Origin: Promethearchaeota archaeon | GTDB lineage: Archaea > Asgardarchaeota > Lokiarchaeia > Sigyniarchaeales > SOKP01 | Assembly: GCA_030599585.1 (NCBI GenBank) | Contig: JAUVNS010000020.1 | Span: forward strand, 1 to 64,000 | Reading direction: 5' to 3' | DNA: 64,000 bases | Shown: piece by piece, positions 8,094-24,181 of the stretch | Position numbering within the stretch: position 1 is the stretch's first letter | How the letters are laid out: each line of letters starts with the position of its first letter | The notes under the pieces: generated by a model | Told to the model about the DNA's origin: nothing | Databases searched by the model: none | Seen by the model: the letters and a program-made list of their open reading frames with translations, nothing else | Position numbers and translations under genes: made by a program

Positions 8094-8259
8094 AACCTAT
8101 TGTGAATAAATATTATAGATTAATTATTAAAAAGGTATTAATATAATTTAAGAGATTCTATAGACTCTGTAACTTTAATAAATTTCTAAGCTATATCTCT
8201 TTGAAAGAGTTTCGTTATGATATTTACTGGTGATTTGAGTATCAAATAAGGAAGACTTT

Positions 8260-10575
8260 ATATCGCACCCGCTTTTAAAGGAAAACATTGTTCTGAGGAG
8301 AGCATATCAAGAAAATATTTTTATAAATTGCCTTAATGCAAACTGCTTAGTTGTCATTCCAACGGGATTAGGAAAAACAATAATTGCTTTAATGTTAGCT
8401 ATACACAAATTGTCAGAAACGCCTAATTCTAAAATAATCTTCTTAGCTCCAACTAAGCCTCTTGTAAATCAACATTATAAATCTTTTTTAGATTTAACGG
8501 TTATTCCTGAAGAGAACTTAAAAGTAATTACTGGAACTACATCACCAGAGAAAAGGAAGGATATTTGGAAGGATTTAGAAATTGCTTTTATGACACCTCA
8601 GGTACTTCAAAATGATATTATCTCTAATCTTTACTCGTTAGAGAATGTACCGTTAATAATTTTTGATGAATGTCATCGAAGTGTAGGTGATTACGCGTAT
8701 TGTTTTATTGCTAAGAAATATGTCGAATCCGCTAAGAATTTTCAAATTTTAGGTCTTACCGCAAGTCCAGGATCTACGGAAGAGAAGATTAACGAAATAA
8801 AAAAGAATTTATATATCGACCATGTCGAAATCAGAACAGAACAAGATTCGGATGTGAAACCTTACATCTTTAAGGTTGAGAACGAGTGGATTAAGGTTAA
8901 ACTTCCAAGTGAATTTATGGATATTAAAAAAATAATAACCGAGAAATTAAGAACAATTTATAAATGGTTAAAGCAACAAGAATTACTAAATTCGTCAGAT
9001 ATTACTAAGGTTACTAGAAAAGATTTGCTTGCGTTAGATAGAGTAATTAATGGAAGAATTTCCTCTGCAAGAACAGATGAGGAGAAGTTTAGATTATTTA
9101 CTGCGAAAAAATCTATGGCAAATGCGATAAGATTGTCCCACATGGATGAACTTATCGAGACTCAAGGAGTTAGCGCATTAGATGATTACATGAGAAAAAA
9201 TATTAAAAAGATAAAACAAAACACTGCAAATAAATCACTAAAAGAACTTTTTAGAGATTCTGACATAAAGCGCGCTCTTAGGTTAATAGGAACTAGCAAA
9301 CAAAAAGGTATTGTTCATCCTAAACTTGAAAAACTTGCGGAAATTTTACATAATCAGATCATTGAAAATAGAGACTCGAGAATATTAGTATTTTGTCATT
9401 TTAGAGACTCTGTCAACAATATAGTTAAATTTATTGAAAGAGATGAAGTGGTTAAGGCTCACAAATTCGTAGGACAAGCTAACAAAGCTCTAGATAAAGG
9501 TCTAACTCAAAAAAAGCAAATTCAATTACTAGAAGAGTTCAAAGAAGGAATATATAACACATTAATAGCTACAAGTGTTGGAGAAGAAGGTTTAGATATA
9601 GCGGAATGTGATTTAGTAATATTTTATGACATAGTACCAAGTGCTGTGCGTTCTATTCAACGCCGAGGAAGAACTGGGAGAAAAAAGGAAGGAAAAGTTC
9701 TCTTATTAATGGCTGAAGGTACTCGTGATGAAGGATATTTTTGGGCTGAAAAAGCTAAGGAACGGGTTATGCATCAAAGCTTAAAAAACATGAAAGAAAA
9801 TGATTCAAGCTCGAAAGCAGGACAATCAAACCTTTTAAATTTTATAAAAGAAGAAGAAGACAATAAGGATTCTAGTAATTTAAAAAATATTTCAGATTTA
9901 TCGTCTATCCAGAAGATTGAGGGTGCTCAGGATTACACAATAATTTGTGATAATAGAGAGACAGCCTCTGCTGTTGTTAGAGCATTATCCCTTATGGGAG
10001 TTAGTTTAGAACTAAAACAATTACCCGTCGCAGACTATATACTCTCAGAAAGAGTTGGGATCGAAAGAAAATCAGCACCAGATTTTAACGATTCCGTTAA
10101 GGATGGGAGACTGTTTAATGAACTCTTTGAGTTAAAAAACAATTTTGTCAGGCCCATTTTAATATTAGAAGGGGACCCTTTTTTAAATTCAAACATTAAC
10201 CAAAACGCCCTCTACGGTGCGATTACTTCAATAATTTTGAATTTAGGAATTACAATATATAAAACAAACAATCCGTCTGACTCTGCCATGTTTATTTATC
10301 AGCTAGCTAAAAAAGAACAGTCAGATACTAAAAAGGAATTTAAATTAAGATTTGACAAGAAACCAATAGAAATTACTAGTTTATTAGAATACATCGTTGC
10401 AGGTATACCAGGTATAAACGCTCTTAGAGCTAAAAACTTACTTAGAGAATTGAAATCGCTTCAAAAGATTTTTAACGCTGATATTGGGGATTTAATGAGT
10501 GTTGAAAATATTGGAAAGAAAATTGCTCAAGAAATATATAAACTAAGCAGATTTAAATATCAAGATAAAACCTAA
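8260..10575 (+). CDS. hef: Hef / FANCM-like DEAH helicase-ERCC4 nuclease (N-terminus extends upstream of the ATG at 8392)
   Basis: The in-frame upstream sequence SHPLLKENIVLRRAYQ...IPTGLGKT (Q motif and Walker A) precedes the ATG. Also DECH, LTASPG, QRRGRTGR, ERCC4 DNRE...ADYI...ERK and a C-terminal HhH. Start is inferred at ATA 8260. Confidence 0.93.
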   Translation: MSHPLLKENIVLRRAYQENIFINCLNANCLVVIPTGLGKTIIALMLAIHKLSETPNSKIIFLAPTKPLVNQHYKSFLDLTVIPEENLKVITGTTSPEKRKDIWKDLEIAFMTPQVLQNDIISNLYSLENVPLIIFDECHRSVGDYAYCFIAKKYVESAKNFQILGLTASPGSTEEKINEIKKNLYIDHVEIRTEQDSDVKPYIFKVENEWIKVKLPSEFMDIKKIITEKLRTIYKWLKQQELLNSSDITKVTRKDLLALDRVINGRISSARTDEEKFRLFTAKKSMANAIRLSHMDELIETQGVSALDDYMRKNIKKIKQNTANKSLKELFRDSDIKRALRLIGTSKQKGIVHPKLEKLAEILHNQIIENRDSRILVFCHFRDSVNNIVKFIERDEVVKAHKFVGQANKALDKGLTQKKQIQLLEEFKEGIYNTLIATSVGEEGLDIAECDLVIFYDIVPSAVRSIQRRGRTGRKKEGKVLLLMAEGTRDEGYFWAEKAKERVMHQSLKNMKENDSSSKAGQSNLLNFIKEEEDNKDSSNLKNISDLSSIQKIEGAQDYTIICDNRETASAVVRALSLMGVSLELKQLPVADYILSERVGIERKSAPDFNDSVKDGRLFNELFELKNNFVRPILILEGDPFLNSNINQNALYGAITSIILNLGITIYKTNNPSDSAMFIYQLAKKEQSDTKKEFKLRFDKKPIEITSLLEYIVAGIPGINALRAKNLLRELKSLQKIFNADIGDLMSVENIGKKIAQEIYKLSRFKYQDKT

Positions 10576-10593
10576 ATTGTGTAAGATTAGTGT

Positions 10594-11901
10594 TTACGCT
10601 AAATTTTTAATCTTTTTAACGCCTTCACCGATTCTTTTTAATATCTCTTCGATTTCTTTTTCTTTCACGATTAAGGGTGGCATCATTATGATCGTGTCCT
10701 TTTTATTTCCACAGTAATTTTGTAGAACGCCTTCTTTTATTATGGAAAGCATAGCTAATTGCCCTAGTGTTTCGCTATTAAACTCCATGCCCCACATAAG
10801 TCCCCTCCCTCTCACTTCATTTATTATTTCAGAATTATCGTCTGCAATTTCCTCCAAACCCTTCTTAAAAAGTTTCCCCATCTCCTTTACATGATTCAAA
10901 AATTTTGGATCAGATTGGATATCTAGCATTTCACATGCAACGACACAACCTAAGTCAGAACCTCCTGTTGTAGAAATGTGTATGAATGGGTCGTCTTTAA
11001 AAACTGCTTTCTCTATGAATGGTTTATAACTGCAAGTAGTGATCGGATAAATTCCAGCACTCATACCCTTACCTAATACCATAAAATCAGGTATAACCTT
11101 TTCGCGTTCATAAAGTCCTCCATAGATTGCCCAAAAATGACCAGTTCGCCCAAGTCCTGTTTGAACTTCGTCGATTATCATCATAACACCAAAATCATCG
11201 CATAATTCTCGAACTTCTGAAAAATAGCCCTCTTGAGCAATTAATACACCTGCTGATGCTGGGATTGTTTCCAGGATGATGCAAGCAACATCATCCGAAA
11301 TGCTCTTTTTTAATGCATCAATATCGCCAAATGGTACTTGCGTAAAATCCGAAAGATTCCAAAGGAAATTTTCTTTAAAGTCAGGATCTCCAGCTGCTAA
11401 CGCAAAACCAGTATGACCATGAAATCCTCCAATTGCAGATAAGCATTTTTTACGTTTCGTATATGCCCTTGAAAATTTAATAGCTGAATCTACTGACTCA
11501 CCACCACTAACTCCAAATGTAGTTTTTGTAATCCCGGGTGGCATAAGCTTTGCTATCTTTTCCCCTAACAAAGCTCTCCATTCTGACAATAATAGATGAT
11601 CACCTATATCTAATCCGCTATCTAAAGCGTCCTTAAGGATTTGGACAATTTTTTGGTTACCATGCCCTAAATTATAAACACCGCCACATGTGTGGCAATT
11701 AAAAAGTTCCAATGGTGGATCATTGGGTCTTGGTCCAGCCAAAGTTTTAATCTTAATGCCCTTCCTCTCCCCAGGAATAATTCCAAGACCAAATCCTTTA
11801 AATACACGAACTTTTGGTGAATTTACATACTTTGCGTATAACTTCAATAGCTCTTTCTGAGATAAAGTTCCAAAAAATCTATTATTTGAACCTTCTTTCA
11901 T
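10594..11901 (-). CDS. Class III PLP aminotransferase (putrescine/acetylornithine-type)
   Basis: Motifs SGGESVDSAIK, FHGHT, IIDEVQTGLGRTG, LGKGM and VRGRGLMWG. Confidence 0.92.
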   Translation of the reverse strand: MKEGSNNRFFGTLSQKELLKLYAKYVNSPKVRVFKGFGLGIIPGERKGIKIKTLAGPRPNDPPLELFNCHTCGGVYNLGHGNQKIVQILKDALDSGLDIGDHLLLSEWRALLGEKIAKLMPPGITKTTFGVSGGESVDSAIKFSRAYTKRKKCLSAIGGFHGHTGFALAAGDPDFKENFLWNLSDFTQVPFGDIDALKKSISDDVACIILETIPASAGVLIAQEGYFSEVRELCDDFGVMMIIDEVQTGLGRTGHFWAIYGGLYEREKVIPDFMVLGKGMSAGIYPITTCSYKPFIEKAVFKDDPFIHISTTGGSDLGCVVACEMLDIQSDPKFLNHVKEMGKLFKKGLEEIADDNSEIINEVRGRGLMWGMEFNSETLGQLAMLSIIKEGVLQNYCGNKKDTIIMMPPLIVKEKEIEEILKRIGEGVKKIKNLA

Positions 11902-12114
11902 AATTCATCAGCGTTATTTTTAAGTTAATGTATAATACTTGATTATTGATTTAAGATCATAGTCTTTAATAGAATTTACAGATAAAAGTTATGAAATAAA
12001 TGAAAAATCAAACTGTTAATATTAATAACAAAAATTTTATGATTAAAGATTAATCTTTTTATTGTAGTAGTAATATAATTAGAATGTTATTAAAAAAACT
12101 TGATGTGATTTACC

Positions 12115-12705
12115 ATAATCAAATTTAAAGTAATTGTAGCTGGGGCTAAAAATGTCGGAAAAACATCTCTCATAAGGCGTTATGCAACAGGCAAATTTGA
12201 TAAATCAACTTTATCAACGATTGGAGTAGATTTTGAAACAAAGAAGGTAGTTGTTGATGATACTGAGATTCTCTTAAATATTTGGGATTTCGCTGGAGAG
12301 AAAAAGTTTCGACTTCTACTTCCCTCATATGTATCGGGAGCTTCTGGGGCTTTAATGCTTTACGATATAACAAATAAAGATTCTTTAGGAGATCTTCACG
12401 ATTGGGTGAAAACTATTAGTTCAGTTCCAAATTATCCAAAAACTAAGCTACTAATTGAGGCAAAAATTGATTTAGAAAACCAGAGAGAAGTAACTCATGA
12501 TGATGCTAAGGCACTATTTGACAAATACAAATTTCAAGGAGACATCCATGGTGTGTCCTCAAAGACGGGAGAAAATGTCGAAAATGTTTTTGAGACGCTC
12601 GGAAGAGAGATTATCAAGAATTCTTTAAAAAAATGCACGAGCTGCGACAAATTTTACCCTTTAGAACTTAAATATTGTCAATATTGCGGTCAGAAAACAC
12701 GGTAA
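12115..12705 (+). CDS. Rab/Ras-like small GTPase with C-terminal zinc ribbon
   Basis: In frame upstream of ATG 12355: G1 GAKNVGKTS, STIGVDF and G3 WDFAGE. Downstream: G4-like EAKID, G5 SSKTG, and CTSC...CQYC. Start is inferred at ATA 12115. Confidence 0.92.
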   Translation: MIKFKVIVAGAKNVGKTSLIRRYATGKFDKSTLSTIGVDFETKKVVVDDTEILLNIWDFAGEKKFRLLLPSYVSGASGALMLYDITNKDSLGDLHDWVKTISSVPNYPKTKLLIEAKIDLENQREVTHDDAKALFDKYKFQGDIHGVSSKTGENVENVFETLGREIIKNSLKKCTSCDKFYPLELKYCQYCGQKTR

Positions 12706-12810
12706 TTCTGTTAATTGCTTATTTTCAATCATTAGGATTAAAGAATCTATATCTTTTTAAAAAATAAAACGCTTATCAAAAATAATATTCTAAAAAATAG
12801 GTAATTTAAC

Positions 12811-13881
12811 TTGAAATACGATTTAAATGATGACCTCAACGAAATTTTAAAGCGTTTAAAAGACGATGAAATTTCTTTTCGTGGTAAGACAATTTTAGTT
12901 ACAGGAGGAGCAGGCTTCTTAGGTTCGTGGATTTGTGATGTACTAGTAAAACAGGGAGCGTATTGCATTTGTTTAGACAATCTATCTTCAGGAAGATTTG
13001 AAAATATTTCACATTTAATGGATAAAGATAATTTCCGCTTCATAAATCACGACATTTCTAAATCAATATTTTTTGGATTCACCCATCATCCAAATGGAAT
13101 ATGTATCGGCGATATTAAAAAAATCGACATCGTGATGCATATGGCAAGTAGAGCGTCTCCGTTTGAGTTTAGTAAATTTCCAATCCCTATATTAAAAAGT
13201 AATACTTTAGGGACGATGAATGCTCTGGGAATTGCAAAAGCTCATAATGCTATATTTTTTTATACGAGCACCTCTGAGGTTTATGGGAATCCTCCCGACG
13301 ATGTTATCCCAACATCTGAAGAATATTTTGGACATGTTAATCCTGTAGGGCCCAGAAGTTGCTACGACGAATCTAAAAGAGCTGGAGAAGCTTTCGTTAA
13401 AGCTTACGAACTCCAACATGGAATTAAAACAAAAATTGTTCGAATTTTTAATACATCTGGCCCCAGGATTCGATTCGGTCCGGAATTTGGTAGAGTTATC
13501 CCTAACTTTATAAAACAGGCTTTAAACAACGAAGAGATAACTATCTTTGGTGATGGGTCACAAACAAGATCATTTATTTACGTAGTTGATGAAATTGAAG
13601 GTCTTTTAAAAATTGTTTATAAAGACGAAGCGATTGGAGAAGTTATTAATTTAGGTAATAATAAGGAACATACTATCTTAGAATTGGCAAAAATTATCAA
13701 AGAATTATCCAATTCAGAATCAGTAATTACATTTAAACCTTTACCTATTGACGATCCAACAAGAAGATGTGCTGATTTAAAAAAAGCAAACAGAATCTTA
13801 AATTGGCGACCCACGACACCTCTAAAAGAAGGTTTGTCGAAAACTATAGCCTGGTTTAAAGAAAATGTCCCGATTGAATGA
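12811..13881 (+). CDS. NAD-dependent epimerase/dehydratase, UDP-glucuronate decarboxylase (UXS)-like
   Basis: Motifs TGGAGFLGS, ASRASP, STSEVYG, GPRSCYDESKR, RIFNT-GPR, GDGSQTRSF and DDPTRR. Confidence 0.9.
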   Translation: MKYDLNDDLNEILKRLKDDEISFRGKTILVTGGAGFLGSWICDVLVKQGAYCICLDNLSSGRFENISHLMDKDNFRFINHDISKSIFFGFTHHPNGICIGDIKKIDIVMHMASRASPFEFSKFPIPILKSNTLGTMNALGIAKAHNAIFFYTSTSEVYGNPPDDVIPTSEEYFGHVNPVGPRSCYDESKRAGEAFVKAYELQHGIKTKIVRIFNTSGPRIRFGPEFGRVIPNFIKQALNNEEITIFGDGSQTRSFIYVVDEIEGLLKIVYKDEAIGEVINLGNNKEHTILELAKIIKELSNSESVITFKPLPIDDPTRRCADLKKANRILNWRPTTPLKEGLSKTIAWFKENVPIE

Positions 13882-14389
13882 AAAACAAGATTCAAGTAAA
13901 CTTAACAGAAATTATAAAGAGTTTGATAAACTTCTCAAATTGCTCCTCATAATTGGTATCATTATTATATCGGGGTTTATAATTTACGCCTTTTTAACTC
14001 CTAAACCGGGTTATTGGTATCTTGGTATTTTGAATTCTGACAAAAAAGCAGAAAATTACCCTACAGAAGCTGCTGTTGATGTAAATATTACTTTTTATAT
14101 TTCTGTTGGAAATTATTTAAATCGGGATTTTTCATTCCGTATAGAAATTTTGAAGGGAGATAACGAAACTGTACTAGGGCCATCACCTTCTTTAAACGCA
14201 ACCTCGTTCGTAAATTCGTCAACAATTACTTTACTACATGGAGCAGAATGGATTTCAAGTGCATTTAATATTTCTTTTTCGCAGCGGGGGAATAACCAAT
14301 CAATCATTGCAGAACTGTGGGAAATCCCTTCCGTAGGTGTTAGAAGATTTTATGACGTAGTATATATAAGATTAAATATTACTTTCTAA
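13865..14389 (+). CDS. DUF1616-like membrane-anchored protein
   Basis: Single N-terminal TM followed by ILNSDKKAENYPT and a beta-rich domain with several NxT/S sequons. Confidence 0.6.
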   Translation: MSRLNEKQDSSKLNRNYKEFDKLLKLLLIIGIIIISGFIIYAFLTPKPGYWYLGILNSDKKAENYPTEAAVDVNITFYISVGNYLNRDFSFRIEILKGDNETVLGPSPSLNATSFVNSSTITLLHGAEWISSAFNISFSQRGNNQSIIAELWEIPSVGVRRFYDVVYIRLNITF

Positions 14390-15762
14390 CTCTGAGCACC
14401 TATTATTTGAACATTATCAATTTTTACATAGGGTGCGGAGTAAGATCCGTAAACCTTATATTCTTTTGATATAGAAGTAATGTTTTCAAACAAATCTAAT
14501 AGATTTATACCGAACATAGTTTCATTTAAAGCATGCTTTATTTGACCATTTTGTATCAAATTTCCTTGTGAAATCAAGCCTGAAAAATCACCAGTTGCAA
14601 TATTTGGAGAATCTGCGGTTGAATTTAACAAAATACCTTCTTTTACATTTTGTATTAATTCTTCTTTTTGAGCTGTTCCAGGTTGTAAAATTAAATTCGA
14701 TATTCCTATTGAAGGAATGGAGCTAAATGATCTTCTTGATGCGTTTCCTGTGCTTTCGACACCCTCTTTTCCAGCAGTATAACTGTTGTGCAACAATCCT
14801 GATTGCAGAAATTGTCCATGTTCGATAATTTTTTTATTTCTACAAGGAAACCCTTCACCATCAAAAATATTAGAGCCAACTCTACCATTAATTAAAGCGT
14901 TGTCATCCATATTTATCAAATCTGAACCGATCTTTTTTCCTCTTTTGCCAACTAAAAAACTTCGTTTATATTGATATGTTTCTGCATTAATTGCAGATGC
15001 GATAGGATTTAATATTAGATTTATTGTCCCCTTCGGAGAAAGTATCACTTGCATTTTTTTTGTTTTAATTTTTTTTCTATGTAGATTTCTCTTAGCATTT
15101 TTTAGTGCTTCCTCTGCAGTTTTTGTTGCATCGATATCAATTAGCTTTCTTTTCATTTGAGATTCGTATCCATTTGAAACTTCTCCATTAATCGTATCTT
15201 TCACTATCATATTTGACGATGTATTAAAATAGGTCTCCTCTCCACTTACCTCTATGCCGTTCGAGTTGAAAATATAAGAAAAATTGCTATTAGCTGTAAA
15301 ATCTCCTGATTGTGATATTGCTTGGTCATCCTCAGCACAAACTTTAATCAGATCTTTAACATATTCTATTGCATCCTCGATTGATAAGTTCTTTATGCTT
15401 TTATCGTATAAATCTTCAACCACTGCATAGGACTTTAATTTTTCAGGCAAATTTTTAAAGTTAGGATCGGGAGTTCCGACACGCATCATTTTGATGGCAT
15501 TTTTAACAATTTTTTCTACAACATTTTTTTTCATTATGTTTGTAAATGCGAACCCAATGGACCCATTTGTTTGATAAATTCTGATTGAAATTCCATGATT
15601 TCTCCCAGTTTCGCTGGATTTTACCGAATTTTCCTCTACTTCGATATTAAGATATTGACTTTTTCCGATAAAAATTTCAGCACATTTATAATTTGAAAAA
15701 TTTTTTTCGGCAATTTTAATAGCAAATTTAGCAAGCTCAAATACATCTATATCCTCATACAT
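14386..15762 (-). CDS. pmbA: TldE/PmbA family protein
   Basis: Motifs FDGEG, STGNASR and GDFS. No HExxxH. Paired with TldD. Confidence 0.88.
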   Translation of the reverse strand: MYEDIDVFELAKFAIKIAEKNFSNYKCAEIFIGKSQYLNIEVEENSVKSSETGRNHGISIRIYQTNGSIGFAFTNIMKKNVVEKIVKNAIKMMRVGTPDPNFKNLPEKLKSYAVVEDLYDKSIKNLSIEDAIEYVKDLIKVCAEDDQAISQSGDFTANSNFSYIFNSNGIEVSGEETYFNTSSNMIVKDTINGEVSNGYESQMKRKLIDIDATKTAEEALKNAKRNLHRKKIKTKKMQVILSPKGTINLILNPIASAINAETYQYKRSFLVGKRGKKIGSDLINMDDNALINGRVGSNIFDGEGFPCRNKKIIEHGQFLQSGLLHNSYTAGKEGVESTGNASRRSFSSIPSIGISNLILQPGTAQKEELIQNVKEGILLNSTADSPNIATGDFSGLISQGNLIQNGQIKHALNETMFGINLLDLFENITSISKEYKVYGSYSAPYVKIDNVQIIGAQS

Positions 15763-17226
15763 TTAATTCAATCCTCCCACCGTGATGTCATCAACTCTGA
15801 TATATGGTCCACCATCGCAAACCCTAATGCTTTGGCCTCCCTTTCCGCAAACACCGTCACTGTAGCTAAACGATTTTTGATCACCAATCGCTGAAACTTT
15901 TTTTAACACCTCAAGAATCATTCCCGACAACGCAACATCCCTCATTAATTCTTTTTTCTCTCCATTTTCGATTTTATACGAGAACTTACACTTAAATTGA
16001 AAGTTTCCAGTAGTTGGATTAGTATAACCGTACAAAAAATCTTCGCAAAGAATTCCATTTTTTGTGTCTTGTATTAATTCTTCGATGTTCCAATCTTTTG
16101 GTTCAATGTAAGTGAACCCCATTCGGACTTGAGGTTTAGCGGAACTAGATGAAGCTCTTCCGTGACCGTTTGGGGGTAAATTCATTCTTGATGATGTTTC
16201 TAAATTATGCAGGTAATTTTTCAGTACGCCATTTTCAATAATTGTTGTTTTTTGGGATGGAATTCCTTCGTCATCTATAAAATAGCTCCCAAATAACTCA
16301 TAAGGAAGTCCAAGTTTTTTACCTTGCCCCATTGAAGGATCATCGATCACATTGATATCTGGTAAAGCTATTTTTTTTCCTATTTTTTCTTTCAAAATAC
16401 TTTCTTTACTTAAAACCAAATCAGCCTCGCATGCATGTCCAAGAGCTTCGTGAATTAAGGTTCCGGCTAATTTAGGATCAGCAATAATAGTAAATTGTCC
16501 ACCTATAGGAGATTTCGCGTCTAGTAATTTAATCGACTCTTGGGCTGTTTTTTCGCTTAATTTTTCTGCCTTTTCTGTTGATACTATCTCAAATCCACCT
16601 AAGCCCCCTACAGAATTAATAGATTTCTGGGTTACTCCTGCTTTTCGGGAATATACCATGTTTAATAATCGCAAATACGAAAGCTTTTGTTTAATTTTAC
16701 TTCCAAATGAACTGATAAAGATGTAATTGCTAACGCCATCCATATAAATTGTTCGCGTATTTGTTACTAACTTAGAAGAATCTATGGCAATTTTTTCATG
16801 AGATTTTACTAATTTTATTTTTTCTTCAATATTTACATCCGATAAGGGTATTTTGCTATCAATTTTGAAGCTTTTCTCTAAAGGATCCCTTTCAATTATT
16901 TTAAACTCATTTTTTATTAACGATCGTGTTAATTTCGCTAGCTTTATTGATTTTAAGAAGCTCGATCTAATGCTATCCTTATTAAGATCCTTGAGAACAC
17001 TAAAACCCCATCCTCCATTTATAAAAGCTCTTATTCCACAATTTGTCATCTCATATGAAGAAATCTCCGTACTCCTTTGATCTGTGAAATCTAAAGTCGT
17101 TCCTTCGCTGACCGTTGCTCTAATATCCCAATATTCGACTTTATTCCCCGCTTCTCGCAACAAGTCTGCTATGAAAGCATTGTCAAATAGGCTTAATTCA
17201 TTATCTGTCTCCATAAAACTCGTCAA
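15763..17226 (-). CDS. tldD: TldD family metalloprotease
   Basis: Motifs HEALGHACEAD, DDEG, GHGRA...PQVRM and CGKGGQ...GGP. Confidence 0.92.
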   Translation of the reverse strand: MTSFMETDNELSLFDNAFIADLLREAGNKVEYWDIRATVSEGTTLDFTDQRSTEISSYEMTNCGIRAFINGGWGFSVLKDLNKDSIRSSFLKSIKLAKLTRSLIKNEFKIIERDPLEKSFKIDSKIPLSDVNIEEKIKLVKSHEKIAIDSSKLVTNTRTIYMDGVSNYIFISSFGSKIKQKLSYLRLLNMVYSRKAGVTQKSINSVGGLGGFEIVSTEKAEKLSEKTAQESIKLLDAKSPIGGQFTIIADPKLAGTLIHEALGHACEADLVLSKESILKEKIGKKIALPDINVIDDPSMGQGKKLGLPYELFGSYFIDDEGIPSQKTTIIENGVLKNYLHNLETSSRMNLPPNGHGRASSSSAKPQVRMGFTYIEPKDWNIEELIQDTKNGILCEDFLYGYTNPTTGNFQFKCKFSYKIENGEKKELMRDVALSGMILEVLKKVSAIGDQKSFSYSDGVCGKGGQSIRVCDGGPYIRVDDITVGGLN

Positions 17227-17324
17227 ATCACAATATAAACATAAAACTTCTTGATAAATAATAATAAGAGTCTTAAGAAAGTGAAGAATAGAGATTTAAA
17301 TAATTTTTTTCTTTAGAGGATTTT

Positions 17325-17570
17325 TTAATTCAAATTTTTTTCATAATCAAGAAATTTAAAAAGAGTTTCTTTTTCTCCTTTCATTTTTATTTTCTTGATA
17401 ATTTTAATAGCGTCCGCTAAAGTTACCGTTCTTGTAACCTTAAATGAGTTCTTAAACTGAAAAGATCGATTACACTTCCAACATTTTTTCGTTTTTAAAA
17501 TTTTATTGCTATAATACCACTCTCCACAATGATAACAACGAAAAAAGTAGAATTTCTGAACATTGCGCAT
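17325..17570 (-). CDS. Small zinc-ribbon protein (DUF1922-like)
   Basis: Motif FRCYHCG...KKCWKCNR. Confidence 0.7.
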   Translation of the reverse strand: MRNVQKFYFFRCYHCGEWYYSNKILKTKKCWKCNRSFQFKNSFKVTRTVTLADAIKIIKKIKMKGEKETLFKFLDYEKNLN

Positions 17571-17736
17571 TATATAGATATAGCAAAAATTTTAGCATTT
17601 ATGGAAAATAAGGCTACAAGTTTTCTAACATACAATAAATATATTTGATAGTTAATATATAGAATATATAAAAAAAAGTTAAATTTACCAGAGACGTTAT
17701 TATTCCTAGATAGAATCATAAAAAGTTGGGGATATT

Positions 17737-18399
17737 ATGAAGGAGATAACTGAGAAAGAATTAAAAAAGCTAAATATCGACGAATTAACGCACTTGTTTG
17801 TGGATAATATAAATGAACAAAATTTGAAATTAATTAAAGGGATAGAATTTCTGGTCGAGGAAAAATTTGATGATTTTACGAAAAATTTAAATTACGTTAT
17901 AGAGACTAATACCGAAGTACAAATCAAGAAAGTTTTTGAGGGTAAAATCTTCAAATCTAAATTAATGTTCTCAAAAGCAGACAGGTTAAAGCTATTCACT
18001 AAAATTAATGATATCAAAGGTATTGGAGAATTCATTGCCAATAAAATGCTTCTCTACAAAGTAGTATTTCCAGATAATGAATTTAAAACCCAACTCATTA
18101 ACATTTTAAAATCATTAAAATCGATTTCTAATGGTTTAACTGAAGCGGTAAAAGCCATTGGCTCGGATTTGAGTAAAGCTCATAGTATTTGTGAAGATGT
18201 GAAAGATGAAAGAAGAAAAATGAGAAAAGAAGAGTGGCAATTACTGAACCGTTTGTATAATTATGACATGGATTACCTATCAAGAACTTTTCTTTACTTG
18301 AAAGAACTAGTAGAAGATATTATGATGTTGGCTGACCATATTAAAAGTTTTTCAGAGTATATTCAATTTTTAGCAACAAAATATTTAATCTTTGATTAA
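17737..18399 (+). CDS. DUF47/PhoU-like phosphate-transport regulator
   Basis: All-helical protein upstream of a PiT gene. Resembles the downstream DUF47 paralog. Confidence 0.65.
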   Translation: MKEITEKELKKLNIDELTHLFVDNINEQNLKLIKGIEFLVEEKFDDFTKNLNYVIETNTEVQIKKVFEGKIFKSKLMFSKADRLKLFTKINDIKGIGEFIANKMLLYKVVFPDNEFKTQLINILKSLKSISNGLTEAVKAIGSDLSKAHSICEDVKDERRKMRKEEWQLLNRLYNYDMDYLSRTFLYLKELVEDIMMLADHIKSFSEYIQFLATKYLIFD

Positions 18400-18413
18400 A
18401 AAAACTGATTGTT

Positions 18414-19445
18414 ATGGCAGTTGACATAATTTCAATTGTAGTAGTAGTTTTAATTGCCTTGGCAATCGCCCTCGCATTTTCTATAGGCGCAAACGATGAA
18501 ACTCTATCCACTTTAGTGGGAGCTGGAGTTATTAAATTCAAGGTAGCCTTATTGATTGGTGGCATAGCAGTTGGAGTAGGGATGTTCTCCTTTAGCTTTG
18601 CGTTTGTAGCAAAAACCGTTGGTGCTGATTTATTAGGTGAGGCGGTAACGTATACAGAATTTATGTTGTTAGCGGTATTAATAAGTAGTATTTTGTGGTT
18701 AGTAATTGGCAGTTTCGCAGGAATTCCCTTAAGTAGCACCCATTCATTAGTAGGAAGTATATTTGGAGTTGTAATTGTATATGCATTAACACATGGAAAT
18801 GTTAATATGGAAACTGCATTTGATTGGGAAAAATTAAGTAATGTAATTCTTGGTTGGTTCATTTCTCCATTATTTGGATTGATCATTACATATGTTCTTT
18901 TCAAAATACTTGCAAAAGTATATCTCTCCAAATTAAAAGGTTTAAATCAAATCGAGAAATCTGAGAAAAATTTCAAGTGGTTATTATTAATTGCAGTAAT
19001 TTTTGCTGAGATATGGGTGGGAGCAAATTCTGGCGAGGCGTTAGGGATTCTTTATGGATTATTGGATGGAGGTACGTTGAACTTGGAGCAATATATATTT
19101 TTTGCATTTATTTGTGGTGTTTTCTCTTGTCTGGGGATATATATTGCAGCACGGTATGTAATTAGAAATTTAGCTTCTCAAATGATGGATTCTCGACCGA
19201 GCGAAAGCCTCATTACTCAAATTAGTTCCGGCTTGATTCTCATGATCGCTACTTTATTAACTTTGCCAATATCTCATAGCCATGTAATAGTATTTTGCAT
19301 AATTGGAATGAGCGTGGCGCAAAGAAAAGAAGTTGACTACAAAGGTTTAGGAAAAATGGCGATATACTGGGTTCTCACTTTTCCAGTTGCTGCGATTCTT
19401 GCAGGGTTGATTTATTATGGATTTAATTTATTTGGATTAGGCTAA
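18414..19445 (+). CDS. pit: PiT family inorganic phosphate/anion transporter
   Basis: Motifs GANDE, GIPLSSTHSLVGSIFG and LPISHSH; multiple TM helices. Confidence 0.88.
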   Translation: MAVDIISIVVVVLIALAIALAFSIGANDETLSTLVGAGVIKFKVALLIGGIAVGVGMFSFSFAFVAKTVGADLLGEAVTYTEFMLLAVLISSILWLVIGSFAGIPLSSTHSLVGSIFGVVIVYALTHGNVNMETAFDWEKLSNVILGWFISPLFGLIITYVLFKILAKVYLSKLKGLNQIEKSEKNFKWLLLIAVIFAEIWVGANSGEALGILYGLLDGGTLNLEQYIFFAFICGVFSCLGIYIAARYVIRNLASQMMDSRPSESLITQISSGLILMIATLLTLPISHSHVIVFCIIGMSVAQRKEVDYKGLGKMAIYWVLTFPVAAILAGLIYYGFNLFGLG

Positions 19446-19505
19446 TAAACTATAAAAAATACTTTGTAATAGTAAAATATAGCACTAATAAAGAAATGAA
19501 AATAT

Positions 19506-20198
19506 GTGATAAAAATGGGTTCATTAATAGAATTTCTTAAAAGAGAAACGGCATTGAATGTTCTAGAAAAAACAATCAAACATGCCCAAATTGTTCAACA
19601 ATGTGTAAGAGAATTAGAAGTAGGGCTTAAAGTATTGCTTAAGGAAGAGAATTTTGAAAAAGCTCGCGAAAACTTTAACAAAGTTGATCTTTTAGAAGAC
19701 GAAGCAGACAAGATAAGGAGAGAAATATTAAAAGATGTTTCGAAAGGAGAATTAAATCCAAGTATCAGACAGAATTTATCACATCTTATAAAAAGATTAG
19801 ATGATGTAGCAAATTGTAGTACGGGAGTTGCTCGTAGAATTACTACCATACCCACCAAATTTTGGGAGCAGAGTAGTGAAGAAACTATAAAACTAATATT
19901 AGAAATAATTGAAACAACCGTAGAAGCGGTAAGTAATTTAGATAAGCTTGTTATTGATTTAGTGGGCGAAAGGAAAAATGTGAAAGACTATGCCCAAAAG
20001 ATAAATCAATTGGAACATGATGTAGACCTCTTAAATATTAAACTAAGAGAAAGTCTTCAGAAAACAGAGTACGATGTAAATTTCTTTACAATTTTCACTG
20101 TTGGCAACATTTTTGACATTTTGGAAGCAATATCCGATTCTATTGAAGGCGTTGCCGATTATATAATAGTACTCCTCACAAGCTCCCGCGTTCTTTAG
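19506..20198 (+). CDS. DUF47/PhoU-like phosphate-transport regulator
   Basis: Motifs LEDEADKIRR, LDDVAN, LEHDVD and LEAISDSIEGVAD. Confidence 0.88.
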   Translation: MIKMGSLIEFLKRETALNVLEKTIKHAQIVQQCVRELEVGLKVLLKEENFEKARENFNKVDLLEDEADKIRREILKDVSKGELNPSIRQNLSHLIKRLDDVANCSTGVARRITTIPTKFWEQSSEETIKLILEIIETTVEAVSNLDKLVIDLVGERKNVKDYAQKINQLEHDVDLLNIKLRESLQKTEYDVNFFTIFTVGNIFDILEAISDSIEGVADYIIVLLTSSRVL

Positions 20199-20295
20199 AG
20201 TGGAATGTTTAACAAATGTAGTTTATTTAAATTAATTGATATTTAAGTAAAACAAGTTATAGTTCTCTTTAAAAAATAAAGAAAATTTGAATATT

Positions 20296-21189
20296 TTAAT
20301 TCAAAGAATTAAAATTAATACTAATATTGGCTAGAAGTTCTTTGTACCTTGAGCGTAGGGTGACCTCTGTAACCGATATTACCTTGGAAATGTCTTTTTG
20401 GCTCACTTTAACATTACGGAGTTTGGAAACCAAATAAATTGCTCCAGCGCAGAGTCCTTTAGGATCTTTTCCAGAAATAGAGGTTTTTAATATAAAGTTG
20501 CGAAGCACTTTCATTGCTTCTTTTTCTACCTCAATTCCTAAACTTAGATCAGCACAATAACGCGGTATAAGAGTTACTGGATCAATATGTGATATCTTTA
20601 AATTCAACTCCCGAACTAATATCTTATAGCATTTCTTTACGATATTGTCGTTAATGGAAGCTTCTGATAGTATTTCTTGAAGCGTAATAGGTACTTTTTC
20701 GTCTTTACACGCATAGTACGCACAGGCTGCAACCATTCCGTTTATCGATCTTCCTCGCAAAAGTTGTCTTTTAAAAACTTCTTTATACAGTCTAACGGCA
20801 GATTTTTTCACTCTTTCAGGAAAATTTAGATTACCCCCTATTCTTTTCAGCTCGGTAATTGCCATTAACATGTTTCTCTTTTCCCAAGACAGATGCGTAT
20901 TCCATTTAGCAGCTCTTCGTAAATCAGGATTTTTGATTTTGGTCCTATCGATAACGGTACTCAGACCTATATCTGGCATCAAGATAGACATAGGAGACCC
21001 TGTCCGCTCCTTTCTATCTTTTTCGTGTTTCGAATAAGCCCTTATCCCACTATGACCAATATCCAAACATCTCTCGTTAACTACTAGTCCACACTGTTGA
21101 CAGACCGTTTCTCCTCTTTCTTGTATGATAAGAGTACTTCCCCCACATTCGGGGCATAAATTTGATGATACATCTAATTCAACAACCAT
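20296..21189 (-). CDS. tfb: Transcription initiation factor IIB (TFB) paralog
   Basis: CPECG...CQQCG Zn ribbon, B-reader ERTGSP, RGRSING-VAAC-Y, GKDPKGLCAGAIY and VTEVTLRSRYKEL. Confidence 0.95.
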   Translation of the reverse strand: MVVELDVSSNLCPECGGSTLIIQERGETVCQQCGLVVNERCLDIGHSGIRAYSKHEKDRKERTGSPMSILMPDIGLSTVIDRTKIKNPDLRRAAKWNTHLSWEKRNMLMAITELKRIGGNLNFPERVKKSAVRLYKEVFKRQLLRGRSINGMVAACAYYACKDEKVPITLQEILSEASINDNIVKKCYKILVRELNLKISHIDPVTLIPRYCADLSLGIEVEKEAMKVLRNFILKTSISGKDPKGLCAGAIYLVSKLRNVKVSQKDISKVISVTEVTLRSRYKELLANISINFNSLN

Positions 21190-21740
21190 ATTAAAATACC
21201 ACTTTACTTATAGTTTATTTATTTTTTTTGTCGTTCCTTTTTTTTACTATTCTCGTTTTTCAAGGGAATAGTAGGACAAATATTTATACTTTTGAACACA
21301 CATAAATTTTGTTTGTTATCTCAATCAATGATAAATTTATATTTAAATATTATGCTTTTGTAATACAAATTTTGTTTTTAGTAGTACTTTTTTTTTTTTT
21401 TACCCTAATTTCCCGTGAACAATAGGAATTTATATAATTTGAATATAAATATTTATTTTTGAATTAATAATAGATATATCATTAGGGTATATATTTTGAT
21501 TAAAAAATGTCTTATCTTGAACCTTGGGTGAAACGATGTCCTTGATTTTGCTTCTTGAAAATTAAGATATCTCATTTTTCATGCAAAGAAAATTACGGCT
21601 TTATTCTTTATCGAGTTAAAATAAGTAAATAGTTATCGTCTTATCTTTTTACATAATATTAAATAAAACTTTTAACACTAATTTTTTGATCTTATTTTCG
21701 TCTTTTTAAAAATAAAGTTTTCTTTTAAGGTGAAAAACAG

Positions 21741-22745
21741 ATATCGCAAGAACCGGAAAAATCAAATAAGAAAGAAAATCCATCCACGATGAATGACAAG
21801 AGTTCGAGTAAGGATAAATCAGAAGATAAACCTAATATGACCGAAAAAGAAATAGAAAATATTAATCTTAACGACGAAAAGATAAAGCGGTATATGAAAC
21901 AGTACAAAGAAGAGAACGATAAATACGCAATTTGGAGAGGCGCGATAACTGAAGGTTTTAAAAAGTGGTTAAAAGGCGAAAAAATCTATACGCGCGACAA
22001 GGAAAGAATATCCTTATATGTTGACGATAAGATTAAGGGAAATTGGCAAAAATTTATAAATAAAAACAAGGAATCCTTTCCTACTTTTTCAGAGCTAATA
22101 AGACAGAGCGTTAAGTCATTTATGGAAGATTCGAGTAGGGTGTCGAGCGAGTTATCTAAACTTAACCCTAGTACCCTATCTAACATCTCTCACGCTTTAA
22201 AGGAACCTCTCACATCTATTAAAGGCTATTCTCAGTTACTTCTTGAAAGCGAAGAATTCAAGGGTAAATTAAGTGAGCATGTTGAGGAAACAATAAAAAA
22301 TATTTTTGATCAGAGCAATTTACTAGAAAACATTATAAAGAATTTCCTAGACAACATTGAACCTGAAAGTACTCCGTACGACATTTTATTAATTGAAGAT
22401 GATTTGGCAACAATTCGGCTAATAACTAGCTATTTTGAAAGTAAGCATTACATCTGTAAGGGAGTTGTAAGTGGGACAAAGGGTTTAGAAGAATTAAGAA
22501 GGGTGGTTCCAAAAGTTATACTGTTAGACATTATATTGCCTGATTTAAGTGGGTATGATATATGTCAGACAATAAAAACCGATAACACTTACAAAAAAAT
22601 ACCTGTTTACTTTCTAACAGCGATATCCGCATCAGAAATAAAAAAACGTTTAAATGAAACGCTAGCTGATGGATACATCCTTAAGCCATTTAACTTTTCT
22701 GATTTTAATGTTATATTTGAGATTTTAAATGGAAAAGCGGATTAA
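21741..22745 (+). CDS. RHH-HisKA(DHp)-REC hybrid regulator, copy 1 (start ATA 21741 or ATG 21789)
   Basis: ERISLYV...FSELIRQSV (RHH); SHALKEPLTSIKG (H-box); LLIEDD...LLDIILPD...KPF (receiver). No HATPase domain. Confidence 0.85.
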   Translation: MSQEPEKSNKKENPSTMNDKSSSKDKSEDKPNMTEKEIENINLNDEKIKRYMKQYKEENDKYAIWRGAITEGFKKWLKGEKIYTRDKERISLYVDDKIKGNWQKFINKNKESFPTFSELIRQSVKSFMEDSSRVSSELSKLNPSTLSNISHALKEPLTSIKGYSQLLLESEEFKGKLSEHVEETIKNIFDQSNLLENIIKNFLDNIEPESTPYDILLIEDDLATIRLITSYFESKHYICKGVVSGTKGLEELRRVVPKVILLDIILPDLSGYDICQTIKTDNTYKKIPVYFLTAISASEIKKRLNETLADGYILKPFNFSDFNVIFEILNGKAD

Positions 22746-22995
22746 TCTGAGTATATATAACTGAATGATCTCCATCAAGAGAAAAATGGTGATTTTTCTT
22801 TGGGTTTGTTAACTTTTAAATAAATACGATATAACTTAATTGGGTTAAATTTATTTTTTGTGAAGAATTACTTTTAAGTAAAAAATTAGTTTACAAAAAA
22901 TAAAAATTTTTATAATAAGCACTATATTAATTTTAGATTTTTAAGCGTAAAATTACTCAGAAATATAATAAATGAAAAAATCATAGGTGTAAAAA

Positions 22996-23949
22996 ATTCC
23001 TAACGAAAAGAAGAACGATAGTAATTCAAGTGGTAAGGAAGATGACACAAGTCCAAAAATGACCGACGAAGAAATAAATAATCTGGATTTGAATAGCGAA
23101 CAAGCGAAAAAGTTGATGAGAGTATATGAAGAGACCACTGATAAGTATGCTAATTGGCGTGGAAACATAACAGAAGGTTTTATGAAATGGCTTAAGGGAG
23201 AAAAAATATACGACAGAGAAAAGGAACGTATTTCCTTGTATGTAGCTGATAAAACCAAAGAAGAGTGGAGCGAGTTTATAAAAACTCATAAAGATAAATA
23301 TAACACCATTTCCAAACTTATAAGAGAGAGTGTTAATTATTTTATTAAGCAAGAATCCACTCTAATCAGCGAAGACTTACATAAAATAGACAACCAAACT
23401 CTTACAAACATATCGCATGCGCTAAAGGAACCGTTAACGTCAATCAAAGGATTTTCTCAACTATTAATTGAAAATTATCGCGATGAGATGGAAGAAAATG
23501 TTTTTAACACCATTCAAAATATATTCAATCAATCTTTACTTTTAGAAAACAAAATTATCAGCATTCTGGACAACATAAAAACAGAAACTTCTCAATACGA
23601 CATATTACTTATTGAAGATGATTTAGCTACTATTCGTTTGTTAACAAGCTATTTTGAAAGCAAGGGTGTTTCCTGTAAGGGCGTAGTTAGTGGAACAAAA
23701 GGATTGGAAGAGCTAGCGAATAATCCACCTAAGTTGGTATTGCTGGATATTATTTTACCCGATTTTAGTGGTTATGACATCTGTAAGCGAATTAAAGCAA
23801 GTAAAGAGCTTCAAAACATTTCGGTTTATTTGTTAACTGCCATACCAGGATCAGAAGTAGAAAAGAATCTCGAAGATAGCAATGCTGACGGTTACATTCT
23901 AAAGCCTTTTGATTTCTCTGATTTTGAAGTAATATTTCAATATTTGTAA
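22996..23949 (+). CDS. RHH-HisKA(DHp)-REC hybrid regulator, copy 2 (start ATT 22996 or ATG 23059)
   Basis: Same architecture as copy 1: ERISLYV...ISKLIRESV, SHALKEPLTSIKG, LLIEDD/LLDIILPD/KPF. Confidence 0.85.
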   Translation: MPNEKKNDSNSSGKEDDTSPKMTDEEINNLDLNSEQAKKLMRVYEETTDKYANWRGNITEGFMKWLKGEKIYDREKERISLYVADKTKEEWSEFIKTHKDKYNTISKLIRESVNYFIKQESTLISEDLHKIDNQTLTNISHALKEPLTSIKGFSQLLIENYRDEMEENVFNTIQNIFNQSLLLENKIISILDNIKTETSQYDILLIEDDLATIRLLTSYFESKGVSCKGVVSGTKGLEELANNPPKLVLLDIILPDFSGYDICKRIKASKELQNISVYLLTAIPGSEVEKNLEDSNADGYILKPFDFSDFEVIFQYL

Positions 23950-24080: not shown

Positions 24081-24181
24081 CGCACCTGGAGGGATTTGAA
24101 CCCCCGAGCGCTTACGCGCACTGGCTTACTTGATCGTATAATTTACTCAAGGCCAGCGTCTTACCACTAGGCTACAGGTGC
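24081..24181 (-). tRNA. tRNA-Ser(TGA) with canonical 37/38 intron (24127-24145, 19 nt)
   Basis: GCACCTG/CAGGTGC plus G73; CTGGC-CT-TGA-G[intron]A-GCCAG; long variable arm; BHB central helix CTTG/CAAG. Confidence 0.9.

Follow-up and report, generated by a model that had tools for sequence, protein, structure and literature searches.

Shine-Dalgarno-guided ATA, ATT and ATC codons as probable translation starts in a Sigyniarchaeales genome of the Lokiarchaeia

The stretch of DNA considered here, hereafter the window, comprises 64,000 nucleotides of a Promethearchaeota archaeon (Lokiarchaeia; Sigyniarchaeales; GenBank assembly GCA_030599585.1, contig JAUVNS010000020.1, positions 1 to 64,000). Four genes on its forward strand, encoding a Hef-type helicase-nuclease, a Rab-type GTPase and two HisKA-receiver proteins (Regulators 1 and 2), have reading frames that continue upstream of their first ATG, GTG or TTG codon (collectively NTG). 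For all four, a first-pass annotation made from the letters alone had proposed initiation at ATA or ATT behind Shine-Dalgarno (SD) motifs. Comparison with orthologs and a survey of the whole genome were used to follow up this proposal. Initiation at SD-led ATA, ATT or ATC codons (collectively ATH) very probably explains the GTPase, the regulators and about 55 more genes. The assembly analysed is of metagenome type and comprises 4.85 Mb in 52 contigs, with 32.6% G+C and 8.9% contamination. This genome is designated G000, C-numbers are its contigs, and G- and L-numbers denote compared genomes and ortholog loci. The features of the window discussed below are as follows.

8229..8238, forward strand: 5' element of hef, GGTGAT with in-frame GTG 8230, ATT and TGA 8236; invariant in seven genomes

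8239..10575, forward strand: hef, stop-to-stop frame (DEAD/ResIII helicase, ERCC4 nuclease and HhH; Pfam)

12105..12109, forward strand: GTGAT, SD preceding the Rab-type GTPase; complementary to the 3' end of the 16S rRNA

12115..12705, forward strand: Rab/Ras-family GTPase, 196 aa, predicted start ATA (Pfam Ras; ortholog codon exchange)

21727..21733, forward strand: SD AAGGTGA of Regulator 1; TAA-GGTGA kept in nearly all of about 28 orthologs

21741..22745, forward strand: Regulator 1, HisKA and receiver, 334 aa, predicted start ATA (Pfam; orthologs)

22985..22989, forward strand: AGGTG, SD of Regulator 2, with TAA 22990 directly after it in frame (sequence; orthologs)

22996..23949, forward strand: Regulator 2, HisKA and receiver, 317 aa, predicted start ATT (Pfam; orthologs)

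The 3' end of the G000 16S rRNA reads GGATCACCTCCT. Being complementary to this end, GGTGA, GTGAT and AGGTG are true SD words. When the words are aligned to it, the spacing between SD and candidate start lies within 5-7 nt in the Rab, Regulator 1 and Regulator 2 genes (6, 7 and 5 nt, respectively).

In the Rab gene, ATA 12115 sits 5 nt past GTGAT, and the in-frame TGA at 12106-12108 is the TGA inside this SD itself. The first in-frame NTG, ATG 12355, is codon 80 and lies downstream of the G1-G3 motifs. The same spacing occurs in pfdB, where GTGAT is followed after 5 nt by TTG 37257. What the first-pass annotation had reported on this gene and on the pfdB spacing was correct on re-reading. To compare orthologs, the codon preceding I-K-F-K was read in 24 same-genus genomes and several outgroups. 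Five species of the genus and four outgroup loci (L056-58 and L060) have ATG here (M-I-K-F-K), and about 15 species of the genus have ATA or ATT. Every ortholog with ATA or ATT carries GGTGA, GTGAT or GGTGG 5-7 nt upstream of this codon and is without an in-frame NTG ahead of the P-loop. Position 1 of the Pfam Ras model falls on residue 5 of the ATA-started protein. Public calls for orthologs of the gene either read an ATG-TGA as 'MW' (P0005, P0010) or start inside the P-loop (P0006, P0014, P0016); the 'MW' calls imply that a table with TGA as tryptophan was used in their annotation. Because codon exchange, SD, Pfam coverage and the truncated public calls agree, ATA 12115, as originally proposed, is the predicted Rab start by all comparative criteria at hand.

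Regulators 1 and 2 are both proteins with HisKA and Response_reg (receiver) domains by Pfam. In Regulator 1 AAGGTGA is followed after 7 nt by ATA 21741, and an ordinary ATG (21789) occurs 16 codons further on. Across some 28 orthologs GGTGA always stands 7 nt ahead of ATA, ATC or ATT, with ATG in this place once (L084). The first in-frame NTG of these orthologs wanders from codon 0 to codon 67, with the frame open from the ATH codon onward; the frame is uninterrupted despite a fast-evolving, low-complexity sequence. ATG 21789 is found only in some close relatives. By this comparison ATA 21741 is most likely the conserved start of Regulator 1, and ATG 21789 may be a secondary start that adds a second product in G000. 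The order in Regulator 2 is AGGTG, TAA 22990, AAA and ATT 22996, with the first ATG at 23059, 21 codons on. At position 22996 four genomes have ATT and one has ATA, and three close relatives (L066-68, 88-92% identical) have ATG; across the compared orthologs this codon invariably follows GGTGT and 5 nt. The peptide added by the ATT start aligns with the paralogue. What the first-pass annotation had recorded for both genes, including the paralogue alignment and the position of ATT just past TAA, was accurate, and the exchange of ATH codons with ATG, at a kept spacing in Regulator 1, upholds the starts that it had chosen.

Two further genes of the translation apparatus, encoding a ribosomal protein and an initiation factor, lie on other contigs.

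G000 C24:248181-248684, reverse strand: ribosomal protein uS4 (L126), predicted ATC start (I-G-D-P-R-R) behind AAGGTGAT

G000 C3:26012-26362, forward strand: aIF1 (SUI1; L095/L096), without ATG, GTG or TTG for 109 of 116 codons

MGDPRR is the universal N-terminus of uS4, and the first codon is ATC in G000. Among 18 same-genus loci this codon is ATC in ten (G000 included), ATA in two and ATG in six, and it is ATG in all 12 outgroup loci. Within the genus the start lies 5-6 nt after a GGTGA-type SD. Alignment of orthologs, which had been put forward as a check on the original proposal, thus reveals exchange among ATG, ATA, ATT and ATC at the starts of Rab, both regulators and uS4. In aIF1 GGTTGTGA is followed by three codons and then by ATT ahead of the zinc knuckle, an arrangement kept in 17 of 17 same-genus genomes, all of which have no NTG for 18-109 codons. 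In G000 the zinc knuckle and the whole SUI1 domain precede the first NTG. In other families the codon before CCA-AAA is ATG, TTG, GTG or ATA. The aIF1 start is probably this conserved ATT, at a looser spacing of 9 nt; aIF1 gives weaker support than uS4, Rab and the regulators, and its alignment is less exact.

Two genome-wide counts were made. The first took every GGTGA located before a frame that has a stop upstream and stays open for 100 codons or more, and recorded the codon found 6 nt away: ATG 15 times, TTG 14, ATT 13, ATA 9, ATC 6, AAA 3 and AAT 2. The second was confined to codons at least 8 codons ahead of the first NTG in the 4,997 stop-to-stop frames that reach 100 codons or more, and scored as an SD any 5-mer of the anti-SD complement at an aligned spacing of 5-7. 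ATH codons were observed behind such an SD 86 times against 30.8 expected (Poisson P ~3e-16), ACG 7 times against 1.7 and CTG 4 times against 1.2. No clear enrichment was seen in this test for GTA (7 against 4.0 expected), TTA (12 against 12.9) or GTT (4 against 4.5). The ATH spacing profile has its maximum at 6 nt (49), followed by 7 nt (26), resembles that of TTG and has no excess at 9-10 nt. The count of SD-led ATH sites that the first-pass annotation had suggested therefore returns a clear excess, located at the spacing optimum of true starts. From the excess of observed over expected sites, about 55 genes of G000 most likely use SD-led ATH starts; canonical starts led by an SD at this spacing number about 300. 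Position 1-2 of the matching Pfam model precedes the first NTG in 12 tested candidates, Rab included; the families are AOR (aldehyde:ferredoxin oxidoreductase), Response_reg, Ras (two), Gtr1/RagA, GFO (GFO/IDH/MocA), Rpp14 (Rpp14/Pop5), DeoC, CobA, HGD-D, PALP and DsrE. Codon exchange, the genome-wide excess and Pfam coverage together bear out the earlier suggestion that SD-guided ATH initiation recurs in this lineage, and the Pfam domains lying ahead of the first NTG, with the Rab calls cut in the P-loop, likewise bear out the suggestion that such starts truncate annotated proteins.

A mechanism consistent with these observations would begin with pairing between the 3' end of the small-subunit 16S rRNA (…GGAUCACCUCCU) and a GGTGA-type SD, which would set the P site about 6 nt past the A of GGTGA. 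The initiator tRNA would there accept AUA, AUU or AUC, and rarely CUG or ACG, pairing only at the first two codon positions, and a strong SD at optimal spacing would offset the weak codon. Methionine would presumably remain the first residue. Starts of this type would be in use at ATA 12115 of Rab, ATT 22996 of Regulator 2 and most likely ATA 21741 of Regulator 1. They would likely also serve the approximately 55 further genes, including uS4 with its ATC, and aIF1 would probably begin at its ATT at 9 nt. Such starts would probably be of low efficiency and sensitive to the level of aIF1, so that an ATT-started aIF1 would be expected to yield negative feedback on its own synthesis, as for bacterial infC. 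No credible initiator methionine tRNA was identified in G000 with ARAGORN, whether or not introns were allowed and also when the threshold was lowered, or with anticodon-stem patterns.

Several points weigh against SD-led ATH initiation as a general account. Chance would supply about a third of the 86 SD-led ATH sites, and in some candidates, such as a dehydrogenase beginning MKAAVY and one GTPase, an ordinary ATG clearly lies slightly downstream. In Regulator 1 of G000, ATG 21789 could serve as the start. The SD of aIF1, GGTTGTGA, is imperfect, and its ATT is 9 nt away. An SD 5-mer at spacing 5-7 is present on only about 7% of first ATGs in the whole genome, so that most genes apparently initiate without an SD and the mechanism covers a minority class. 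Finally, Hef does not fit the scheme, as described below.

The simplest competing explanation is that the first ATG, GTG or TTG is the start and the open stretch upstream an untranslated leader. This is what standard gene callers report, and public Rab calls do start inside the P-loop. Such starts would remove G1-G3 from Rab, most of aIF1 and the MGDPRR of uS4, and would cut the first 10-80 residues from many Pfam domains; moreover, upstream frames run without a stop for as many as 67 codons in a genome rich in A and T. An untranslated leader is accordingly considered very improbable. Decoding of the preceding stop, with TGA as tryptophan or selenocysteine or by read-through, would move the start to an upstream ATG or GTG, which for Rab would be the ATG of ATG 12103-TGA. 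In favor of this, Rab, Regulator 2 and Hef are each preceded by an NTG with a stop after it, TGA is translated as tryptophan in two public Rab calls, and a tRNA-Sec was predicted in one ARAGORN run. The NTG and TGA, however, are the SD sequence itself (G-GTG-A or GA-TG-TGA), Rab orthologs L035-L042 are without such an upstream NTG, and the stop ahead of Regulator 2 is TAA rather than TGA. TGA ends 222 of 1937 long open reading frames (ORFs), with a median distance of 6 codons to the following in-frame stop, as is also seen for TAA and TAG. Matches to Hef, Rab and uS4 in G000 contain no internal stops that would point to a recoded TGA, and no SECIS family hit was obtained in the window. TGA is an ordinary stop in G000 and a code with TGA as a sense codon is excluded; stop decoding in any form is as hard to credit as the leader.

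A canonical start hidden by sequencing or assembly error might be suspected in a metagenome-type assembly of 52 contigs with 8.9% contamination. The same ATH and TGA states are nevertheless present, with substitutions in the flanking sequence, in 4-17 independently assembled species genomes. A weak further point is that contigs of three other metagenome studies span both starts, with none among the differences listed falling there. No RNA data set was among those listed for the sequence; two runs labelled 'RNA?' have small shares and are probably DNA. Error is excluded for practical purposes because the same states recur in many independent assemblies, and its probability is the smallest of those considered. 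SD-led initiation at ATH codons is consequently the preferred reading for Rab, the regulators and the genes resembling them.

Hef requires separate treatment. Pfam recognizes DEAD, Helicase_C, ERCC4 and HHH_5 in the frame, an architecture of the Hef/XPF type. The frame has an in-frame TGA at 8236-8238 and no ATG, GTG or TTG until ATG 8392, and both the Q motif (~8302-8310) and Walker A (~8359-8379) lie upstream of this ATG. ATA 8260 is found 7 nt past AAGGA (8248-8252). The stop, the position of the two motifs and the AAGGA before ATA 8260 had been noted in the first-pass annotation, which did not mention GTG 8230, a codon in the Hef frame two codons before the TGA and within a perfect GGTGAT (8229-8234). 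In most other species of the genus this GTG, the ancestral start, opens an unbroken Hef frame, M-I-x-[VIL]-S … F-I-S-H-P-L-L-K, with a sense codon in third position where G000 has TGA (TTC, TCT, CTT and others, encoding Phe, Ser, Leu, Ile or Thr). Codon 3 is TGA in seven genomes (G000, G002, G004, G010, G046, G047 and G050), and no further members of this clade were found among the 42 genomes of the genus. The region of GTG-ATT-TGA, GGTGATTTGA, is invariant in the seven, against about 11% variable sites in the leader. Selenocysteine at TGA 8236 is not supported, given the lack of a SECIS hit in the window and the Phe, Ser, Leu, Ile or Thr codons at the homologous position elsewhere.

The candidate starts for Hef are ATA 8260, GTA 8239, and GTG 8230 combined with read-through or re-initiation. 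Initiation at ATA 8260 behind AAGGA, as originally suggested, has in its favor that this ATA is invariant in the seven-genome clade and is the sole conserved in-frame ATH before the Q motif, and that near-cognate starts appear to be used elsewhere in G000. AAGGA, however, is AAAGA in five of the seven genomes and for this reason is not a conserved Hef SD; its aligned spacing to ATA 8260 is about 2 nt rather than 6. The variation between TGA and ATA 8260 (8239-8259) also counts against this start. The three variable sites in this stretch (8244, 8250 and 8256) are all synonymous third positions and none of the 14 first and second positions varies, in comparison with 56% of third and 12% of first and second positions in the downstream gene of the same clade. 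Clade substitution counts give a likelihood ratio of about 7 in favor of translation of the stretch, computed from only these three substitutions, and hint that it is translated. The observations first made on Hef thus stand, and the start drawn from them is probably wrong; ATA 8260 appears a rather doubtful candidate.

Translation that covers 8239-8259 is given about an even chance. It would agree with the invariance of GGTGATTTGA and the restriction of substitutions to synonymous sites, and also with the state of the 8239 codon in relatives: about 16 species have ATA as the homologous codon, one has ATT, and G054, where the upstream GTG is lost, has GTG; in G007 and G049 an ATG stands one codon earlier. 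In G000 this codon is GTA, 5 nt past the invariant GGTGA. Against GTA 8239 are its two mismatches to AUG and the absence of clear enrichment for GTA behind SDs in the genome-wide count given above, and no convincing second example emerged from the GTA cases inspected in G000. Read-through from GTG 8230 has no positive evidence, TGA being otherwise a normal stop. Other points of entry were rejected: frameshifting from a short ORF at ATG 8217, as the frame after the TGA aligns with orthologs codon for codon; CTG 8293, as the HPLLK motif upstream is conserved with synonymous changes; and ATT 8287, a variable codon with the conserved HPLLK motif likewise upstream. In the seven-species clade a GTG-ATT-TGA 'start-stop' may thus be the route to Hef synthesis, with ribosomes either reading through it or initiating at the doubly mismatched GTA. 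Minimal start-stop upstream ORFs and termination-reinitiation are known phenomena. The Hef element resembles the former in being a two-codon ORF abutting the main frame, and differs in having no canonical restart codon after it.

Initiation at AUU has precedents in bacteria, where pcnB is one gene using it in addition to infC. The infC gene of E. coli, encoding IF3, has an AUU start behind an SD and is under translational autocontrol (PMC4705826). In eukaryotes eIF1 (SUI1) is autoregulated through a poor AUG context, and in vitro the aIF1 of Sulfolobus discriminates against AUU (PMC4705826). The starts proposed here share with infC a near-cognate AUH codon behind an SD, and the gene of the fidelity factor itself, aIF1, is apparently among those so started. 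They differ in that the factors would be archaeal aIF1 and aIF2 rather than IF3, and in number, as they would apply to tens of genes in a genome, uS4 and eukaryote-signature GTPases among them, instead of one or two. The homologous eIF1 likewise has a weak start site of its own; in aIF1 the weakness would lie in the codon (ATT) rather than the context, and the start would be reached via an SD rather than by scanning. The apparently weak start codon of aIF1 suggests a feedback loop.

NCBI translation table 11 permits ATT, ATC, ATA and CTG as initiators, while common gene finders use ATG, GTG and TTG and others are deemed rare exceptions. The codon set is the same as that found here, the table merely permitting its use. 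A 'rare ATT start codon' with a ribosome binding site has been proposed for AtubA, an Asgard tubulin (PMC13394414). The deposited AtubA was short of its first beta-strand, which an upstream ATT at ribosome-binding-site distance restored; that proposal was a remark in the methods on a single gene from a different Asgard family, without genome-wide or comparative analysis (PMC13394414). Full-text literature searches turned up no systematic account of AUH starts for the Asgard archaea. The mechanism is therefore a familiar one, and what is new is its scale, the lineage and the genes concerned (uS4, apparently aIF1, and signature GTPases).

The balance of evidence leans slightly toward a more general proposition, that start selection is relaxed or tunable across the lineage. 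At least 1% of genes would carry SD-anchored AUA, AUU or AUC starts that change to AUG and back across small evolutionary distances, including those for a universal ribosomal protein, signature small GTPases and probably aIF1, with the Hef start-stop as a further element. Inferences on how eukaryotic cell biology arose draw on Asgard proteomes. Should gene finders overlook the start codons of at least 1% of the genes, deposited proteins will be truncated, as in the case of Rab without its P-loop, and some will have been rescued with the wrong genetic code. Truncation of this kind skews domain inventories, structure predictions and expression constructs, and the tubulin study mended one such start by hand (PMC13394414). 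The near-cognate start of uS4 and the apparent one of aIF1 suggest that the stringency of initiation is under regulation in these archaea, in parallel with bacterial IF3 and eukaryotic eIF1, which would offer a concrete link between SD-guided and eukaryote-type start selection.

Several other loci were observed in the course of the survey. Two paralogues without a Pfam hit, at G000 C1:50528-51028 (forward strand) and C45:22134-22604 (reverse strand), have the same residue start position, occupied by ATA in one and CTG in the other; both lie 6 nt past GGTGA. A frame of 1164 codons at C40:106973-110467 (reverse strand) has no NTG for 99 codons, and AGGTGA is followed there by AAG and ACA at 5-8 nt, with no ATH in range. 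A UvrB-like frame at C34:37764-39644 (forward strand), listed among the ACG candidates, opens midway through Walker A (T-G-K-T); a gene that is split or frameshifted is a likelier explanation here than a near-cognate start. On C26 and C24 (both reverse strand), HdrA-like frames, resembling heterodisulfide reductase, are limited at their upstream end by an in-frame TGA that has sequence of coding character before and after it; these TGA codons are possible selenocysteine sites. Within the window, positions 24081-24181 (reverse strand), missed by ARAGORN in its default mode, are assigned to a tRNA by Rfam (47 bits) and, in ARAGORN intron mode, to a tRNA that carries an intron and the anticodon TAT (Ile), an unusual finding in an archaeon.

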